Of a stretch of DNA of 64,000 nt, positions 2,465-59,583 are shown piece by piece (position 1 is the stretch's first letter; each line of letters begins with the position of its first letter). The stretch lies in the IMG/VR virus record IMGVR_UViG_3300045015_000053; one strand, given 5' to 3'. Origin of the DNA: a virus. Lineage: Duplodnaviria > Caudoviricetes. The notes under the pieces are model-generated. The model was not told the DNA's origin and did not search any database. It saw only the letters and a list, made by a program, of their open reading frames with translations. Both the position numbers and the translations under genes were made by a program.

Positions 2465-2898
2465 TTCGGCACCTTGTTTTTGATGAAATCGACCCACGCC
2501 TCGTGGTGGTGGGTCAGCGGCGGGTGTTTGGTGTAGCAGGCCGCGTAAGCCATGCAGAAGTTTTCTTCGTCGTTGTCTTGGTTCTGTTTCTTGTTCTTCT
2601 TGGCACAGGCCGTCCACGCCTTCTTCAGTTCCGGCGTCATCAACTTTTCCCACACCATGTGGCCGATCTCGTGTAGTGTGGTGAACTCGCGGCCGTAATT
2701 CCACGGGCCGGCGACCGTCACGGTCTTCCCTTTGATCAACCCGATGTGTTCGTCGTCGCCCTTCAGGGTGTTGCCTGGGACGTACTTGAACTTGAACCCT
2801 TTCATGAGGTCCGCGTGTTTCTTGGGAAGCTTCTTCAACATCGCCTTGATGTTGCGTTCTTCCTCTTCCGCTTCTAAAAGGAACTGACTGAAGTCCAT
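2461..2898 (-). CDS. putative Zn metallopeptidase (HExxH), capsid-targeting-like N-terminus
   Basis: TTLHEIGH and EENFCMAYA motifs; starts MDFSQFLLEAE. Confidence 0.75.
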   Translation of the reverse strand: MDFSQFLLEAEEEERNIKAMLKKLPKKHADLMKGFKFKYVPGNTLKGDDEHIGLIKGKTVTVAGPWNYGREFTTLHEIGHMVWEKLMTPELKKAWTACAKKNKKQNQDNDEENFCMAYAACYTKHPPLTHHHEAWVDFIKNKVPK

Positions 2899-2903
2899 GA
2901 TCG

Positions 2904-2909
2904 TATATA
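2904..2909. promoter_or_regulatory. palindromic TATATA, putative bidirectional late promoter
   Basis: Exactly 5 nt from the ATG of each divergent gene (2898 on minus, 2915 on plus). Confidence 0.6.
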
Positions 2910-2914
2910 GATTG

Positions 2915-3709
2915 ATGCTAAACTCGTTTTCAAACTGGTTCCGCGTAGATGAGGCCGCGAACGTGGAATATCAGGAAGGTCTTGTCGCTTCGTTCTTTTC
3001 CAAGCGGATCGCCGAAGCCGTCAAGAAGTTCTTCGAGGAGGACCGGCGGGAGTCTCTGCCGTACTACCTTTCTCAGATCGTCACTGGTGACGTGAAGGAC
3101 GATGTCGGCGTTTTCCCAATCCCTTCGCAGATCGGGCGTGTCAGTCTGACGCCCGATTTCAGCGGCTGGAAGGTCGAGTTGAAACCCGCCAACGAGCGAA
3201 CCTATGCGTTCGCCGGCGCGGGGAACATCGGCATCCCGTATGACAAGTCGGTTCTGAGAAACGCCCAGTCTTTTGAAGACCCGGCGGTTGACGGCATGTT
3301 GAGTCGCATGGACGACCAACTCGTTCACGAGTGCAGCCACATTTCCACCTCGAAGATCGGGGACGACGCAACGATTAAGGGCAAGCCCTACTGGGAGAGG
3401 TTTCAAAAGGGAAGCCCGGAATACGCAGAGGCTCAGATCAAGTATTACACCGATCCGGGCGAGGTTCGCGCTCACGCCCGTCAATACGCGAACATTTATC
3501 TGAAACGATACGGGAGCGACTTCGACCGTCGCAAGTTCGAGCAGATGGCGTGGAGCGACAACAAGTTGCACAGGTTCGTAAATCGGCTCAGGGATAAGGG
3601 TGTTCAGGGGCAGTTCCCGCAGTTGAGCGAGAGGATGTCTAAGGCGTATTCGGACTTCATGAGTTCGGTGGAATACTTTGTGGACCAGGGACGGATTATT
3701 TTCAGTTGA
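2915..3709 (+). CDS. putative Zn metallopeptidase-like protein (HExxH), capsid-targeting-like N-terminus
   Basis: LVHECSHI and DPGEVRAHA; starts MLNSFSNWFRVDE. Confidence 0.75.
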   Translation: MLNSFSNWFRVDEAANVEYQEGLVASFFSKRIAEAVKKFFEEDRRESLPYYLSQIVTGDVKDDVGVFPIPSQIGRVSLTPDFSGWKVELKPANERTYAFAGAGNIGIPYDKSVLRNAQSFEDPAVDGMLSRMDDQLVHECSHISTSKIGDDATIKGKPYWERFQKGSPEYAEAQIKYYTDPGEVRAHARQYANIYLKRYGSDFDRRKFEQMAWSDNKLHRFVNRLRDKGVQGQFPQLSERMSKAYSDFMSSVEYFVDQGRIIFS

Positions 3710-3728
3710 GCGACCCTACAATACAGGC

Positions 3729-4436
3729 ATGGGCAAAGCTTCAAAAGCATCAAAAAATCCAAAAGGCGAGAAACCAATGTCTCCTCGTCGCAACTCAACC
3801 GGGTCGTACCGACTCGAATTCCTCAACCCCGCTCAGAAGCTCGCTTGGGCCACAATCGATTCACACGACGTGTGTTTCCTTGTGGGTCCGGCCGGTACGG
3901 GCAAGACACAACTGGCGACCGCTTACGCGATCCAGAGGTTCTTGGCCGGCGAGTGCCGCAAGATCTTCATCACTCGACCGATTGTCGAGGCCGAAGAGAA
4001 GTTGGGGTTCCTTCCGGGGTCGTTCGAGGAAAAGGTCTACCCGTACATGCTGCCGATCTACGACTCCATCGAAAAGTGTGTCGGTCTAGACACCCCGATG
4101 GCCGAGAAGATCAAGAAGTGTCTCGAAGTCGCGCCGCTGGCGTACATGAGGGGTAGAACCCTTGAGAGTGCCGTGTGTATCCTTGACGAAGCCCAAAACT
4201 GCACACGCAGCCAAATCAAACTGTTCCTCACCCGTCTCGGTGCCGACTCGAAGATGATTGTCACCGGCGACCCGATGCAGAGCGATTTGCGTGGCGGTAC
4301 CGAAGGACTCGAAGACGTTCTGGACGATCTCTCCGATCTCGAAGGAATCGGCATCGTGGAAATGAAGGCCGACGCCATCGTCCGTCACCCGCTGGTCGGA
4401 AAGATCATCGAGAGATTCGAGAGGCCGCGTGAATGA
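3729..4436 (+). CDS. phoH: PhoH family ATPase
   Basis: GPAGTGKT, ITRPIVE, LGFLPG, YMRGRTL, ILDEAQN, GDPMQSDL. Confidence 0.95.
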   Translation: MGKASKASKNPKGEKPMSPRRNSTGSYRLEFLNPAQKLAWATIDSHDVCFLVGPAGTGKTQLATAYAIQRFLAGECRKIFITRPIVEAEEKLGFLPGSFEEKVYPYMLPIYDSIEKCVGLDTPMAEKIKKCLEVAPLAYMRGRTLESAVCILDEAQNCTRSQIKLFLTRLGADSKMIVTGDPMQSDLRGGTEGLEDVLDDLSDLEGIGIVEMKADAIVRHPLVGKIIERFERPRE

Positions 4437-7598: not shown

Positions 7599-8558
7599 AT
7601 GAACTACAAGAGCTTCACCAGCCGTAGGGCTTTCGGCATCGAGCTTGAGACATCTCAGACGTTGTCGCAGAGCAAGATCAAAAAACTGATTACCGAGAAG
7701 CACCACCGGCCGGTGACGGTCAAGGAGTTCATGCACTCCAAAAACAACCGCAACTGGCACGTTAAAACCGACGCCAGTTGCGGCGGTCCTGGGGAGAGCT
7801 ATGGCCTCGAAGTGGCGAGCTACAAGGGGTCGGGCGTCGAAGACATGATCTCGATTGCAGACACGGCCCAACACCTTCGAGACAACGGTCTAAAGGTGAA
7901 CCGGAACTGCGGCCTGCACGTCCACGCCGATGTCAGCGATTTCACAACTCAGCACGTCGGATTTTTGTTGGCGCGGTGGATCGCCATAGAGCCGTGGATC
8001 TTAAACGCGGTTCCGATCCGTCGCAGTTTCAGCGTTTACTGTCGCGGCCTGCGATACGTTCGGCCGCTCAAGGACAAGATCTACACCGCAAACGAGCTTT
8101 GGGAACACTTCAAACCCGACAACCCCGCCTACACCAACGGCTTGTTCGGGTTGGAACTTCAAATGCCGCAGGACTACCGCCGGGTCGCTTTGAACTTGGT
8201 CAACTTCAACGACGAACACCTGAAGGCGCGTAAAAAGCGGTGTACGGTCGAGCTTCGGTTGCCGGAAGGAACGCTGCGGCGGGTTGATGTGAAAAACTGG
8301 CCCCGGTTCTTCGTCAATTTGGTTGACGCCGCGTTCCGAGACAAGAAGACCGTTCCGTTGACCGCCGAAACACTTGACGAGTTTTTTGACGCCTGTGGGG
8401 TCGGTCACGAGGGCGATTTTTCCATCCTCAGTCCGGGCCTTCGGGAGACTAAACTCTGGCTCCTGCACCGTTTGCGAAAGTACCACTTCAAGCTCGATTC
8501 TAAGGCCATTGACGATTACATCCATCGGATGACTTGGCCCGAAAAACTGGCCTTCTGA
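7599..8558 (+). CDS. putative amidoligase (COOH-NH2 ligase type 2 family)
   Basis: FGIELE, WHVKTDASC, LEVAS, CGLHVH, TVELRL. Confidence 0.85.
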   Translation: MNYKSFTSRRAFGIELETSQTLSQSKIKKLITEKHHRPVTVKEFMHSKNNRNWHVKTDASCGGPGESYGLEVASYKGSGVEDMISIADTAQHLRDNGLKVNRNCGLHVHADVSDFTTQHVGFLLARWIAIEPWILNAVPIRRSFSVYCRGLRYVRPLKDKIYTANELWEHFKPDNPAYTNGLFGLELQMPQDYRRVALNLVNFNDEHLKARKKRCTVELRLPEGTLRRVDVKNWPRFFVNLVDAAFRDKKTVPLTAETLDEFFDACGVGHEGDFSILSPGLRETKLWLLHRLRKYHFKLDSKAIDDYIHRMTWPEKLAF

Positions 8559-15135: not shown

Positions 15136-15230
15136 GGGGGAGTAGCTCAGAGGCCAGAGCGCAATCTAGGGAGCCGATTAAAAACCGGCAAACGTGATTG
15201 AGGTCGTTGGTTCGACTCCAACCTCCCCCA
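15136..15230 (+). tRNA. tRNA-like RNA with 29-nt anticodon loop
   Basis: Acceptor GGGGGAG/CTCCCCC, normal D and T arms, stem CAATC/GATTG enclosing 15167-15195. Confidence 0.7.
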
Positions 15231-15233
15231 CTC

Positions 15234-15635: not shown

Positions 15636-15707
15636 GGGGAGCAGGTGTCAAGGGACACGTCCTGGCTAATCACCGGGAAGAGTGGGGTTCGATTCCCCGG
15701 CTCCCCT
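15636..15707 (+). tRNA. tRNA-Ile(AAT)
   Basis: Acceptor GGGGAGC/GCTCCCC; CCTGG-CT AAT CA-CCGGG; T loop TTCGATT. Confidence 0.65.
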
Positions 15708-15736
15708 CTGGCGATGGGGATATACCCCTCGCCTCT

Positions 15737-26681: not shown

Positions 26682-26754
26682 GGCCCGCTTGCTACAACGG
26701 AGAAGCGCCGAGCTTTTAACTCGGTCACGGTCGGTTCGATTCCGACGCGGGCTA
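26682..26754 (+). tRNA. tRNA-Lys(TTT)
   Basis: CCGAG-CT TTT AA-CTCGG. Confidence 0.85.
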
Positions 26755-32601: not shown

Positions 32602-32684
32602 GACTTGCACGCAGTAGTGGCATCTGCCTCTCGCTCTTAACGAGACGCCGTAAGGCATTCAGGGTTCAAGTCCCTGGCGAGTCA
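32602..32684 (+). tRNA. tRNA-Lys(CTT) with long variable arm
   Basis: TCTCG-CT CTT AA-CGAGA followed by GCC-GTAA-GGC hairpin. Confidence 0.7.
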
Positions 32685-32689
32685 CTGGA

Positions 32690-37260: not shown

Positions 37261-37349
37261 TCCTGGGTAGCATACGTTGGTTAAATGCAGACGGCTGTTA
37301 ACCGTCAGAGGGGGAAACCTCTCCGCTGGTTCGATTCCAGCCCCAGGAG
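37261..37349 (+). tRNA. tRNA-Asn(GTT) with long variable arm
   Basis: GACGG-CT GTT AA-CCGTC then GAGGG-GGAAA-CCTCTC hairpin. Confidence 0.8.
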
Positions 37350-37353
37350 CTTT

Positions 37354-43278: not shown

Positions 43279-43345
43279 CTAGTCGAGATGACAGACAGGA
43301 GTACATTCACTACTCGTTCTCTTGTCAACTTATTGCTCGGCTTAT

Positions 43346-43413
43346 GCCCCGCCCTGCGGTCAGGTTCGGAGTCTACGAAACTCTGAAGTTCCGTTCGACT
43401 CGGAAGCGGGGTA
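43346..43413 (+). tRNA. tRNA-Arg(ACG), compact
   Basis: GGAGT-CT ACG AA-ACTCT; acceptor GCCCCGC/GCGGGGT. Confidence 0.7.
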
Positions 43414-43416
43414 CTT

Positions 43417-45312: not shown

Positions 45313-45383
45313 CAGGGGTAATTGTTACGGTAGCATTCTACTTTTGGAAAGTAGCAGCGTGGGTTCGACTCCCGCACCCCTGA
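45313..45383 (+). tRNA. tRNA-Pro(TGG)
   Basis: CTACT-TT TGG AA-AGTAG. Confidence 0.85.
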
Positions 45384-45603: not shown

Positions 45604-46001
45604 CGGGGACAAGTGTTCCGCTTCTGCTATAATTTGGGTATGAGCAGAGCAGAATACCGTCGCGAGTATCGTCGCCGTCGCAACTTGACCGACCCGAACT
45701 GGCGCAAAACAGAAAACGCAGATCAACTGAAACGGATTGAGCGAAATCGCCAGTTCGTAAATGAATTCAAGAAAAACAAAGGTTGCAAGTATTGCCCGGA
45801 GGCGGCTGTTTGTTGCCTCGACCTCCATCACCGAGATGGTGAAGAGAAAGACAAGGCGGTTTCCTACATGGTCAAAATGGGCTATGGTTTGGAACGCCTA
45901 AACGAAGAGATTCAGAAGTGTGACGTGGTGTGTGCAAACTGTCATCGCAAGTTGCACGCTGGTCACGTTCTGAATAGTAGATAACGGGGACAAGTGTTCC
46001 G
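45604..46001 (+). mobile_element. HNH cassette bounded by a 17-bp direct repeat of the tRNA-Pro 5' end
   Basis: CGGGGACAAGTGTTCCG at 45604-45620 and 45985-46001. Confidence 0.75.
45640..45984 (+). CDS. HNH endonuclease, tRNA-associated family
   Basis: GCKYC...CLDLHH...KCDVVCANCHRKLH; TATAAT 6 nt upstream. Confidence 0.9.
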   Translation: MSRAEYRREYRRRRNLTDPNWRKTENADQLKRIERNRQFVNEFKKNKGCKYCPEAAVCCLDLHHRDGEEKDKAVSYMVKMGYGLERLNEEIQKCDVVCANCHRKLHAGHVLNSR

Positions 46002-46056
46002 GTACGCACCCGTGCTTTGGGAGCATGGAGAGCGGGTTCGATTCCCGCGTCCCCGA
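45985..46056 (+). tRNA. tRNA-Pro(TGG)
   Basis: CGTGC-TT TGG GA-GCATG. Confidence 0.8.
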
Positions 46057-46059
46057 CTT

Positions 46060-56386: not shown

Positions 56387-56548
56387 ATGTCTGTTCTCGA
56401 ACGCATGCGCAAGGTTCGTAAGGTTCCCGATCACCTCCGTCAGTACCGCGATCCCGAAACCGGGTGGCTGTACATCCGCGACGGAGCGTACCTGATCACC
56501 TACTGGGCCAACGGGGAAGTCAAGTCCGTCGAGGTGGTCGGCAAGTGA
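56387..56548 (+). CDS. hypothetical protein (53 aa)
   Basis: GGAG RBS; GTGA coupling to the next gene. Confidence 0.55.
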   Translation: MSVLERMRKVRKVPDHLRQYRDPETGWLYIRDGAYLITYWANGEVKSVEVVGK

Positions 56549-56976
56549 TCATCGAAGAAACCGGCAAGCATGTGCCGCTGTTTGCGGGGACCGGCGTACT
56601 GCGGTACTCCCGGCCCCCTGAATACGGCTTCAGGCTCGTGATGGAATGCGATCAGGCTATCGCCGACTACTACCGCGCCCTGATCCCCAAATACAAGAAA
56701 CCCGCTCCGCAAAGATACGGCGCACACGTCTCGGTCGTCAGGAAGGAAATTCCCGACTTGGCGGCTTGGGGGCGGTACGAGGGCGAGCCGATTGAGTACA
56801 TCTACACCGGCACCGTCTACTTCGGCCGGGTCTACTGTTGGCTGAACGTGTTCTGCACGCGGCTAGAGGAAGTGCGGCGCGAGTTGGGCCTCCCGGTAGC
56901 CAGTGAGTACACCCTGCCGCCGGAAGGCTTCACCAAGTGCTTCCACATGACAATTGGCAATTTTAAGGAACTGTGA
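56545..56976 (+). CDS. putative 2H phosphoesterase
   Basis: Two H-x-[S/T] motifs: AHVSVV and FHMTIG. Confidence 0.6.
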   Translation: MIIEETGKHVPLFAGTGVLRYSRPPEYGFRLVMECDQAIADYYRALIPKYKKPAPQRYGAHVSVVRKEIPDLAAWGRYEGEPIEYIYTGTVYFGRVYCWLNVFCTRLEEVRRELGLPVASEYTLPPEGFTKCFHMTIGNFKEL

Positions 56977-57236
56977 TGACACTTCCACCACTGCCGTATG
57001 CCGACTGGATCACGGCGATCCTCACCATCAGCTACATGCAGTTGATGGCGATGAGGAACGGGTGGGCGTGGCCGCTCGGCATCGCCACGCAGTTCCTCTG
57101 GATCTACATGAGCGTCTCGAAAGAGATGTACGGCATCGTGGTGCTTTCTCTGGTGTTGATGGCACAGTGTGCTTACGGCTGGTGGAACTGGAGCCGCCCG
57201 CCAGAGAAAGAACCCCTCGAAATGGGTGACCAATGA
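56973..57236 (+). CDS. PnuC-like small membrane protein
   Basis: Three hydrophobic helices; WAWPLGI and YGWWNW. Confidence 0.55.
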   Translation: MMTLPPLPYADWITAILTISYMQLMAMRNGWAWPLGIATQFLWIYMSVSKEMYGIVVLSLVLMAQCAYGWWNWSRPPEKEPLEMGDQ

Positions 57237-57407
57237 GATACCGAATCTTGATGGCCGTTTTGTTGGCGTCGGGTGTGGCAGGTTGGATCGCAATGATTCC
57301 CGCGCCGCCCTGTCAGAAAAACAAGTCGAATTCAGGGTTGTCAACCACGCGAAGGTTTGATACCTTCTTCTTGAAGCCTCTAACTGCGGACACCGTTCCG
57401 CTGCAAC

Positions 57408-57734
57408 ATGAAGTATTCAGACCGAATCCTGAAGGTCGGCGAGAAACGCTACCGAAGCCTTTCCGCGACCTTGTACCGCCACGACCTTGAGAACCTCGTC
57501 TTGTGTGGCGTTCCGGCCGACGAATACGCTCACGAGGCGTTGTTGGTACTCGAAGAGGCCGACAAAGAAACGAACTTGACCGAGGCGCGGGTGCTGGCGA
57601 TCTTGGTGGACGTTTTCACCAAGATGTTCTCCCCGCCACGCGAAGACTACCGGCGAAACCGAATCGAGCGAGCTTCGGTCAGCCCGAAGTACGCGGCGGC
57701 GGCGAAGGAAGTCTTTGAGGAGTTGACATCGTGA
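57408..57734 (+). CDS. hypothetical protein
   Basis: PADEYAHEA motif; overlaps alternative ORF 57233..57490. Confidence 0.6.
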   Translation: MKYSDRILKVGEKRYRSLSATLYRHDLENLVLCGVPADEYAHEALLVLEEADKETNLTEARVLAILVDVFTKMFSPPREDYRRNRIERASVSPKYAAAAKEVFEELTS

Positions 57735-57860
57735 TCGTTGGTCCCGTAGCTCAGTTGGTAGAGCAGCGCACTATTTATTGAGTTAACTTGGGGATAAATA
57801 ATGGTTATTTTTTAATTTTCGTAATATATAATTAAAATAATTAAAATAAAAGGATCAAAT

Positions 57861-58292
57861 ATGAAATCATTTAGAGAATGGGTTAAGAAAAATAAGAATG
57901 TAAATTTAAATGAAAATAGTAATGAAGCTGAAATCCAACAATTGGTAGGATTAATTGATGAACCGATGAAACAAATCTTGTCCATTCAAAAACAGTTTAC
58001 TTTCAATCCACATGTTGCAAACACACCAGAGCAAAATAGCCAAATTCACCAAATTGCGAATCAAATTTCTCCCACCATTAAGAAACTGGGAAGTTCGGTG
58101 CTATCAGTCCATGAAAAAACAGGCTATGAGATGATGAAATTGGGAGATTCGTTGTTCAAAAGCGACTCAAATACAACACGAGCTATTTTGGAGTTTGCTC
58201 AAAAATGGGAACAGATAAAACAATTGGCATTATCTGCATCATCATCTGCAAAAAAATTGTTTAAAAGTAAATTCGGCAAATTCGGCGGATGA
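57861..58292 (+). CDS. AT-rich protein with capsid-targeting-like N-terminus, inside the split tRNA
   Basis: MKSFREWVKK; A/T-ending codons unlike the flanking genes. Confidence 0.75.
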   Translation: MKSFREWVKKNKNVNLNENSNEAEIQQLVGLIDEPMKQILSIQKQFTFNPHVANTPEQNSQIHQIANQISPTIKKLGSSVLSVHEKTGYEMMKLGDSLFKSDSNTTRAILEFAQKWEQIKQLALSASSSAKKLFKSKFGKFGG

Positions 58293-58330
58293 AATTTTTG
58301 ATACCGTCGATCCACCCTTTGGAGAATCGA

Positions 58331-58408
58331 ATGGATATCTGGAAGGACATTCCTGGGTATGAAGGCTTCTACCAAGTGAGCAATACGGGGAACGTTAGGA
58401 ATGCGTAG
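58331..58408 (+). pseudogene. NUMOD4 motif fragment (remnant of a NUMOD4-HNH endonuclease)
   Basis: MDIWKDIPGYEGFYQVSNTGNVRNA*, stopping inside the tRNA 3' half. Confidence 0.75.
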
Positions 58409-58555
58409 GTCGAGGGTTCGACTCCCTCCGGGGCCACTTGAAGACAATCTGCGGTCTAATGTTCGAGGCGATGATTGCAATGGTGTTGGTAACCATTGCA
58501 ATCATCGCCTCTTTTTTCTTGGGTATAATCTCACAGCCCACAACCGGAGGACAAA

Positions 58556-59281
58556 ATGGCAGCTTACGAAGAACAAGATGAAGAATTGCCGCTCGACGGC
58601 CCGGACTCTTACGAGGATTCCCCGCCGCGCCCAGATCTTACGCCCGAAGAAGCGTTGAAGATCTACGAGAAGATCCGCGCCCTCGGCGGCACAGAACTCA
58701 ACGAGAAGCTCGACGCCGCCATCAAAACCGACGCCGGTATGCGTCAGGGCATGTGGGGCGTTGCGGCTTCGTGGAACGGCACCGAGCTTCCCGAACACCT
58801 TTCCGAACAACTGACCTTTGAGTTCGGGGAGGGCTACCTCTACGCACGGAATCTCGTTTCGTTGCACGGCGAATGGATCGAACTGGGCGTGCTGACCGGC
58901 TATCTTCCCGACTCCATCATCCTCAAGGACTTCGATTTCTCGATGGAAGGCAAGGCGAAGGAAGTGGGCATCGATTTCGAGAAACTGTGTGACGACATCG
59001 CGGAATTGTTCGTCGGCATCGACAAGGATTGCGGCGGCAACAGATTGTTCGTGTTCCGTGACGGGCTGGAAGAGGGCCGCTGGTGTGACATCATGCGGGT
59101 GACGGGAGCCGGCAGCGTGTACGGCGACTGGGGACGGGGTCGCGGCTGGCGCGGTATTCCGGCCGAAGGTCTGGCCGGGGAGAACCTGAAAGAGATCCTC
59201 AACATCGAAGACCTCGATAACCCCGTCATTCAATTCACACCGCCAGACAACCCCGAAAACTCCAACTCAGGGAACGAGTAA
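58556..59281 (+). CDS. acidic hypothetical protein
   Basis: GGAGG RBS; 241 aa. Confidence 0.75.
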   Translation: MAAYEEQDEELPLDGPDSYEDSPPRPDLTPEEALKIYEKIRALGGTELNEKLDAAIKTDAGMRQGMWGVAASWNGTELPEHLSEQLTFEFGEGYLYARNLVSLHGEWIELGVLTGYLPDSIILKDFDFSMEGKAKEVGIDFEKLCDDIAELFVGIDKDCGGNRLFVFRDGLEEGRWCDIMRVTGAGSVYGDWGRGRGWRGIPAEGLAGENLKEILNIEDLDNPVIQFTPPDNPENSNSGNE

Positions 59282-59583
59282 TGGCTCAAGGCCGAAGGGT
59301 TAGTCCGACAGGGTGTGCTATTGTCATCCTGTTCTGGCCGTTTTTGATCTGGTGGGCCTTGATCGACATGTCGATCAAGGCCGTCTGGGGTGACAAGCGA
59401 GTTGTCGCCCCGCCAACAAAGGCTCAAGTTCAAGACGTAGCCAAAGCCTATCGAGATGCTAAAAAGCTCATCGAGATAAGGCTGAAGGTGTTGAGGAGAG
59501 AAGATGGAAAGCGTGGTGATCAGGGACATCGTGGACTTCCTCAAGAAACACATGAAGCTGGAAGTCAAAAAGAAGACGTTTGA
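59281..59583 (+). CDS. membrane protein
   Basis: TAATG coupling; N-terminal TM. Confidence 0.55.
   Translation: MAQGRRVSPTGCAIVILFWPFLIWWALIDMSIKAVWGDKRVVAPPTKAQVQDVAKAYRDAKKLIEIRLKVLRREDGKRGDQGHRGLPQETHEAGSQKEDV

Follow-up and report, generated by a model that had tools for sequence, protein, structure and literature searches.

The DNA analysed here (the window, 64,000 nucleotides (nt) on one strand) lies within a 188-kb IMG/VR virus record from lake water (IMGVR_UViG_3300045015_000053, Caudoviricetes), which is estimated to be 37% complete and has a guanine plus cytosine (GC) content of 0.56. ARAGORN finds 50 transfer RNA (tRNA) genes in this record, and the same phage was found on contigs of up to 476 kb. 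Between positions 57740 and 58436 one tRNA gene is interrupted in its anticodon loop by 624-627 nt of AT-rich DNA. This insert carries an open reading frame (ORF) of 143 codons, here called ORF143, and the beginning of a gene of the NUMOD4/HNH homing endonuclease type (Table 1).

Table 1. Features of the interrupted tRNA locus and the evidence on which each is placed.
Feature	Position	Strand	Evidence
tRNA 5' half, positions 1-33 (acceptor 5' strand, D arm, anticodon stem 5' strand, C32 U33)	57740..57772	+	ARAGORN; tRNA identities; alignment with the start of the intact tRNA of contig L006
AT-rich leader of the insert	57773..57860	+	GC 0.16 over 88 nt; Shine-Dalgarno AGGA 57851-57854; TATAAT 57827-57832; no excess folding
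ORF143, putative orphan cargo gene, predicted all-helical protein	57861..58292	+	GC at third codon positions (GC3); ORF-length p ~4e-4; only itself found in searches; AlphaFold helix bundle
39-codon ORF overlapping the ORF143 stop (ATGA), with NUMOD4 stub from 58332 to ~58398	58289..58408	+	Pfam NUMOD4 E = 4.5e-11; PHROG HNH families
tRNA 3' half, positions 37-73 (A37 A38, anticodon stem 3' strand, variable loop AGGTC, T arm, acceptor 3' strand, A73)	58400..58436	+	ARAGORN; acceptor strand CGGGGCCA, identical in L006
Intrinsic terminator, 20-bp stem then T run	58465..58511	+	closes the transcription unit; conserved in L006 with paired changes

When the two halves are joined, all seven pairs of the acceptor stem (one of them U-G), four of four in the D stem, five of five in the anticodon stem (GCGCA/TGCGT) and five of five in the T stem are formed. 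The conserved bases U8, A14, G18G19, T54-T55-C56 and A58 are in place, and the joined halves therefore present every stem and the conserved core nucleotides of a cloverleaf. The 3' half consists of the AA at 58400-58401 followed by 58402-58436. With introns allowed, ARAGORN calls a single tRNA here, labelled tRNA-Pro(AGG), with an insert of 624 nt. Because this mode also gave three false calls in 1.88 Mb of shuffled genome, the call was considered insufficient by itself and independent support was sought. Positions 8-31 are identical to those of Escherichia coli tRNA-Thr (24/24), and annotated tRNA-Asn and tRNA-Lys genes of actinophages match the 5' half at 91-94% identity. Contigs from three Joint Genome Institute (JGI) samples and several Logan runs agree with the region at 100% identity, which excludes an assembly chimera at the junctions. 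The upstream gene, encoding a 108-amino-acid (aa) protein, was recovered on 12 contigs in all from these samples and runs.

C32 U33 at the left and A37 A38 at the right are what remains of the anticodon loop; the anticodon triplet itself is gone. The dinucleotide TA is present at both junctions; once it is collapsed, a 7-nt loop remains that reads CTAGGAA. If k letters are kept from the start of CTATTTA and 7-k from the end of TTAGGAA, the resulting anticodon is AGG (k = 0-3), ATG (k = 4) or ATT (k = 5-7). Any contiguous excision would thus leave only an AGG, AUG or AUU anticodon, on a stem with G1-C72 and A73. The TA repeat is probably due to chance or microhomology rather than to a target-site duplication, since it is only 2 nt long and its right copy lies in sequence that can still be aligned with full-length HNH genes.

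The tRNA-Pro label was rejected as an artefact. In bacteria the acceptor identity of tRNA-Pro is C1-G72 with A73. The two tRNA-Pro(UGG) genes of this phage, at 45313 and 45985, begin with C and have a G before A73, whereas the split tRNA has G1-C72. In addition, the letters AGG align with codons of HNH genes (AAC GTT AGG in the window versus AAA GTT AAA in L008). A37-A38 and the tRNA body are typical of tRNAs that decode ANN codons: they point to Thr by comparison with E. coli, to Asn or Lys by comparison with phages, and to Lys by position. Before the insertion the gene was likely a tRNA-Lys. No close paralog of it was found in the genome. Other genes for tRNA-Lys (UUU at 26682, and two with CUU), tRNA-Asn (three with GUU) and tRNA-Thr (three) are present, and the loss of the split tRNA would therefore be affordable. 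The gene has neither a continuous anticodon loop nor an anticodon that fits its acceptor. With no sensible anticodon to be restored, it looks like a dead tRNA gene that a mobile element left behind and not like one with an intron.

The insert differs sharply from the rest of the genome in composition. The GC content of ORF143 is 0.34, that of the leader is lower still (Table 1), and the lowest 200-nt GC window of the whole record falls in the insert (0.22, where the 0.1 percentile of the genome is 0.33). GC3 is 0.31 in ORF143, as compared to 0.67 in the long frames of the genome and 0.74-0.76 in the two neighboring genes. These values mark the insert as foreign in origin. We considered whether it could be a transposon and rejected this, as its ends show only a weak, gapped inverted repeat (57776-57791 with 58372-58385), the right arm of which codes for NUMOD4.

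ORF143 is preceded by AGGA 6 nt upstream of its ATG, and an ORF of this length arose in only 2 of 5000 shuffles of the insert. A word-indexed search of 5.8 billion proteins and an exhaustive HMMER search of 1.84 billion representatives each returned ORF143 itself and no homolog. Comparison with Pfam and PHROG at E <= 1 gave nothing significant, only matches at chance level (E >= 0.13). The AlphaFold model is a helix bundle with a predicted local distance difference test (pLDDT) score of 72; its best Foldseek hits in the PDB were generic helix bundles (E = 0.28 at best), and Atlas feature matches were below 0.8. Within 57773-58396 ARAGORN found no replacement tRNA. ORF143 has the sense orientation and the 108-aa gene lies upstream of it; after it come the stub, the tRNA 3' half and the terminator, and nothing else. 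Given this direction, its own ribosome-binding site and the terminator of the tRNA, ORF143 is probably expressed as cargo in the former tRNA transcription unit.

The short ORF that follows contains the recognizable remnant of a nuclease gene. Its overlap with the end of ORF143 may couple the translation of the two. Residues 17-38 of the 39-codon ORF match residues 2-23 of the 49 in NUMOD4. The closest full-length proteins, P0004 and P0005 (170 and 186 aa), consist of NUMOD4 and HNH_3 and are encoded on contigs of 35% GC; the stub is 83% identical to their N-termini. Where P0004 and P0005 read ...EIWKDIPGYEGFYQVSNTGKVKS..., the window reads ...DIWKDIPGYEGFYQVSNTGNVRNA and then a stop, the TAG at 58406-58408 within the tRNA 3' half. 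Homology ends a few bases short of that half, and about 150 nuclease codons are missing. With only about 22 codons of NUMOD4, the stub has neither the intact reading frame nor the catalytic domain of a homing endonuclease. In the 188-kb record, no other NUMOD4 and no HNH_3 domain was found.

An earlier reading, made from the sequence alone, had already described the two pairing halves, the TA at both junctions with its collapsed loop, an insert much richer in AT than its surroundings, ORF143 and a NUMOD4 fragment stopping in the 3' half of the tRNA. Each of these descriptions holds, including that of composition. Its suggestion that ORF143 encodes a virion-packaged protein was not borne out, as no homolog, family or informative fold match was obtained.

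Two further observations concern the stub and its family. The D arm of the tRNA (57749-57762) is complementary at 13 of 14 positions to 58368-58381, in the FYQVS codons of the stub, for which we estimate a chance of roughly 0.006-0.01. In the minimum-energy fold these two segments pair while the acceptor and T arms still form. The complementarity is probably fortuitous, because the codons involved, TAC CAA GTG AG, recur in unrelated HNH genes (L007 and L008). Separately, a nuclease gene is associated with a tRNA gene at a second place in the window. A 17-nt copy of the 5' end of tRNA-Pro(UGG), at 45604-45620 and matching 45985-46001, precedes a 123-aa HNH gene (45613-45984; PHROG 2255, E = 1.8e-23) that ends at the intact tRNA-Pro (45985 to 46057). 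The stub is of the NUMOD4/HNH_3 type, unlike the PHROG 2255 type of this gene.

The sequence-only reading had advised a comparison of the locus with related phages. The 241-aa protein encoded downstream has one relative, at 66% identity, on a 46.5-kb Logan contig (L006). L006 is syntenic with the window: it carries the glycosyltransferase gene, four small genes, an NMN (nicotinamide mononucleotide)-transporter-like gene and a homolog of the 108-aa protein (75% identity), with tRNA-Val and tRNA-Trp upstream at the distances seen in the window. The 108-aa homolog is followed by a 195-nt spacer and then by the 241-aa homolog, and the spacer holds an intact 73-nt tRNA-Lys(UUU) at 7812-7884. The 5' strand of its acceptor stem is GGCCCCG, versus GGTCCCG in the window, and the 3' strand is the same in both (Table 1). 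L010, a contig from a third run, has the same sequence as L006 in this part, with the tRNA at 532-604. Thus an uninterrupted tRNA stands between the same flanking genes in L006 and L010, the pattern of presence and absence expected of a homing-endonuclease cassette. As the nearest relative known has this gene in one piece, it is the window that carries an insertion.

The tRNA-Lys(UUU) of L006 and L010 is itself unusual. It has no G18G19 motif in the D loop, and its T loop reads TGCAATT and not TTCGAnT; its elbow is deviant as compared to the canonical one of the split tRNA. The terminator hairpin is also retained in L006 (7925-7975), with changes paired on both arms (ATTGCAATGG/CCATTGCAAT versus ATCGCGATGG/CCATCGCGAT). 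Contig joints that skip 628-641 nt were also considered as empty sites and were rejected: they are intact tRNAs of other organisms, with different loop letters and unlike flanks.

Other searches did not extend this comparison. No relative was found by blastn of 57000-59300 against GenBank phages, nor in viral contigs with the exact tRNA 5' half, with ORF143 and the 241-aa protein, or with a glycosyltransferase profile. A profile of the 108/116-aa proteins found none in metagenome and viral contigs. There was no match to 30-41-mers of the cassette in viral contigs, JGI metagenomes and GTDB genomes, to the tRNA body with a free 7-nt loop in GTDB genomes, or to the tRNA 3' half in E. coli genomes.

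Traces of the cassette were seen in two further lake runs, X8 (2025) and X10 (2019). Low-depth contigs from these runs match 57773-57828, 57866-58076, 58114-58378 and 58166-58376 of the window with 0-2 differences, and two X8 contigs continue for 286 nt to the left of 57773 and for 173 nt to the right of 58378 in sequence unlike the window. These contigs hint that the cassette, bounded on the left exactly by the tRNA junction and ending on the right inside the NUMOD4 motif, exists in another context, and they give a hint of mobility. No contig of X8 or X10 was placed on the flanks in the window, which is not counted as evidence. Variants at 58146, 58183 and 58208, which we read as D96Y, A108D and W116C, are too few for an inference about selection. 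A look-up of the ORF143 C-terminus in its X8 variant gave no exact match.

Several other genes for tRNAs, or possibly for enzymes acting on them, deserve mention. At 15136-15231 of the window there is a tRNA-like gene that ARAGORN calls either Ser(GGA) or, when it may place introns, Pro(GGG) with 22 nt inserted; 29 nt lie between its CAATC/GATTG anticodon-stem strands, and an inner GCCG/CGGC hairpin makes this an extended anticodon arm. The tRNA-Ile(AAU) genes at 15636-15708 and 43344-43414 have A34, which is unusual in bacteria and phages, and a tRNA-Arg(ACG) occurs in the same genome. A tRNA-Lys(CUU) of 84 nt (32602-32685) and a tRNA-Asn(GUU) of 90 nt (37261-37350) have long paired variable arms that are unusual for their isotypes. 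An ORF at 56464-56976, 0.8 kb upstream of the split tRNA, has weak Pfam matches of the 2H-phosphoesterase or 2'-5' RNA ligase type (E = 0.004-0.05), and L006 carries an RNA_ligase (PF09414) gene at 2873-3832, about 4 kb upstream of its tRNA. These two are possible tRNA-repair genes beside the tRNA cluster.

We consider it probable that a cargo cassette linked to a homing endonuclease landed in the anticodon loop and killed a redundant tRNA, and that its nuclease gene has since come to be truncated. This is one of the two possibilities that the sequence-only reading had offered, and it builds on what the locus shows: the tRNA gene is split, the insert is foreign in composition, relatives have an empty site, a stub of a nuclease gene is present, ribozyme signals are absent and no sensible anticodon can be restored. 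The steps it adds, in particular that a nuclease drove the insertion and the order of events, would be as follows. The donor would have been an AT-rich genome, and the cassette a two-gene unit of ORF143 and a translationally coupled NUMOD4-HNH homing endonuclease. It would have gone in behind U33 when a DNA break in the tRNA gene was repaired from a donor that bore the cassette. The target would have been the gene of an ANN-decoding tRNA, whose ortholog in the relative is tRNA-Lys(UUU). The anticodon triplet would have been lost in the repair, with no spare tRNA brought in, and the phage may tolerate this through its other Lys, Thr and Asn tRNAs. Of the nuclease gene only about 22 NUMOD4 codons from its start would now remain, abutting the 3' half of the tRNA; this could reflect a later deletion, the capture of a copy that was already truncated, or recombination within the conserved NUMOD4 motif.

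Certain points weigh against this account. There is no intact nuclease, and homing is deduced from a stub of 22 codons. Identity between the bodies of the L006 and window tRNAs is only about 64%, and the L006 tRNA has odd D and T loops, so that Lys is no more than the likely isotype. The second context depends on short, low-depth contigs. The flawless halves fit a recent insertion, but they would also fit selection for a role at the RNA level. Finally, a deletion that ended exactly at the tRNA 3' half is a priori improbable, which favors capture of a truncated fragment in one step over classical homing followed by decay.

Such a capture might have needed no homing at all. A break in the anticodon loop could have been end-joined with a stray fragment of a co-infecting AT-rich genome, consisting of ORF143 and the first 66 nt of an HNH gene; the stub would then be incidental and the tRNA dead. 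The halt of the HNH frame exactly at the tRNA junction would require no second, precisely placed deletion, the 2-nt TA matches at both junctions are in keeping with such joining, the missing anticodon triplet is what end resection would leave, and the HNH_3 search found no nuclease domain in the record. On the other hand, contigs of X8 appear to have their left boundary exactly at 57773, and those of X8 and X10 a right boundary near 58377, suggesting a defined unit. An association by chance also becomes less likely in a genome where HNH genes are linked with tRNA genes more than once. On balance we regard the capture of a stray fragment as unlikely. A bolder version of the cassette reading is likewise unlikely. 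Here the cassette (leader, ORF143 and first HNH codons) would still be mobile, though without a nuclease of its own, and would use tRNA anticodon loops as landing pads among lake phages with the help of a full-length NUMOD4-HNH enzyme acting in trans. ORF143 could then be an accessory gene, for example one against host defence, that pays for the loss of a redundant tRNA, and the X8 and X10 copies could be further landing sites or the full-length parent.

The remaining explanations keep a function for the tRNA or its RNA. Group I introns are known from anticodon loops of bacterial tRNAs, some of them with endonuclease genes, and a very reduced or undescribed type, in which ORF143 replaced the endonuclease and splicing restores the tRNA, would account for the perfectly preserved halves. 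The rule of a U ending the 5' exon and a G ending the intron is met in two registers (exons CTAT and GAA, or CTATT and AA), but it is likely to be met by chance in 2 of 8 registers, and the spliced anticodon would be AUG or AUU; we know of no organism that uses either. In line with the sequence-only reading, which had seen no group I motifs, Rfam gave no Intron_gpI (RF00028) match at E <= 10, whether the search covered 57000-59200 or all 188 kb of the record. Outside ORF143 and the NUMOD4 stretch only 88 + 39 nt remain (the 39 being the spacer at 58293-58331), far short of a P3-P9 core, and the stretch of about 65 nt leading up to the 3' half is what is left of protein-coding sequence homologous to HNH genes and not a ribozyme. 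Neither flank nor the whole element folds better than its shuffles (z = +0.67 for 57773-57860, +0.24 for 58293-58401 and -0.87 for the element). A self-splicing intron is therefore very unlikely.

Removal by proteins, the other possibility raised by the sequence-only reading, fares worse and must be called highly improbable. An archaeal-type endonuclease with a ligase, or nuclease and RNA-repair enzymes of phage or host, would release a tRNA(AGG) that is read with I34. Collapse of the shared TA does give a loop of 7 nt, the phage has other A34 tRNAs in Ile(AAU) and Arg(ACG), and both the weak 2H-phosphoesterase-like ORF nearby and the RNA ligase gene of the relative could be fitted in. Inspection showed no bulge-helix-bulge, however. 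The only long-range helix near the junctions (57776-57780/58381-58385) leaves 5 and 16 unpaired nt beside the anticodon stem, and not two 3-nt bulges around a 4-bp helix. Neither a tRNA-intron endonuclease (PF01974) nor RtcB (PF01139) was found in the 188-kb record, which covers about 37% of the genome. With G1-C72 in its acceptor stem, the split tRNA does not resemble the tRNA-Pro genes of the phage, the gene of the relative is Lys(UUU) and not Pro, and AGG falls in letters that align with HNH codons. Even when all forms of splicing are taken together, we think it very improbable that the insert is removed from a functional tRNA. The halves could instead serve as an RNA clamp or processing signal for the cargo mRNA, with acceptor and T arms pairing across 660 nt to provide RNase P and 3' trimming sites and protected ends, as in a laboratory tRNA scaffold. 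The acceptor stem and T arm do still form in the minimum-energy and centroid folds of 57740-58436, the D-arm complement would add a second closing helix, and the halves are intact. But the overall fold is no better than that of shuffles, the complement lies in codons conserved in unrelated HNH genes and is probably due to chance, and intact halves are also expected after a recent insertion. We give such a clamp little credence.

If a homing-endonuclease-linked cassette is indeed what entered this gene, the locus would represent a late stage in the life cycle of a homing endonuclease in a phage tRNA gene, with the nuclease nearly gone, the tRNA dead and a foreign orphan gene left in a ready-made transcription unit. 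This would provide a concrete route by which huge phages gain genes and lose tRNAs. For annotation there is a warning, as the call of an intron-containing tRNA-Pro(AGG) here is an artefact. On present evidence the split-tRNA cassette is a curiosity; if it is true that the cassette sits in other genomes, it would become a tractable case of cargo that hitch-hikes on tRNA-targeting nucleases.

Homing endonucleases are familiar residents of phage tRNA regions. The tRNA region of phage T5 holds HNH enzymes. In T4, the GIY-YIG enzyme SegB is a free-standing homing endonuclease within the tRNA cluster; it recognizes a T-loop motif and prefers the tRNA-Asn gene of T2L (PMC2330249, PMC13096335). SegB shows that phage homing endonucleases can target conserved motifs of tRNA genes and carry flanking DNA along (PMC2330249). 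As in these cases, the window has a nuclease gene tied to phage tRNA genes that is present in one phage and absent from its relatives; its target would likewise be within a tRNA gene, and DNA beside the nuclease gene would have moved with it. Unlike the intact genes of SegB and T5, which lie between tRNA genes, the element in the window is inside an anticodon loop, retains about 22 nuclease codons and consists mostly of an orphan gene. Defunct homing endonuclease genes of T4, mobE and I-TevIII, are moved in trans (PMC2790892), and nuclease genes are found at the boundaries of exchange between phages (PMC10448857). The window likewise has a degenerate endonuclease gene that persists, and a related enzyme cutting at the empty site might still allow it to spread. 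It also has a recombination boundary in or beside a nuclease gene. In contrast to mobE and I-TevIII, no NUMOD4-HNH gene that could act in trans was found in the 188-kb record, and mobility is only hinted at.

A different comparison is offered by interrupted tRNA genes with a similar layout. Group I introns occupy the anticodon loops of bacterial tRNA genes such as cyanobacterial tRNA-Leu(UAA), tRNA-fMet with I-Ssp6803I and Azoarcus tRNA-Ile. A literature search for HNH-bearing group I introns in tRNA genes of Patescibacteria gave nothing usable. The element in the window resembles these introns in that it interrupts the loop, measures a few hundred nt and has an endonuclease ORF inside, but it differs from them in lacking a ribozyme core, structured RNA or a sensible anticodon after excision. 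Among known systems it may be best placed as an endonuclease-linked insertion in a phage tRNA gene that lacks a working nuclease, brings no spare tRNA and has for its cargo an orphan gene of foreign composition.

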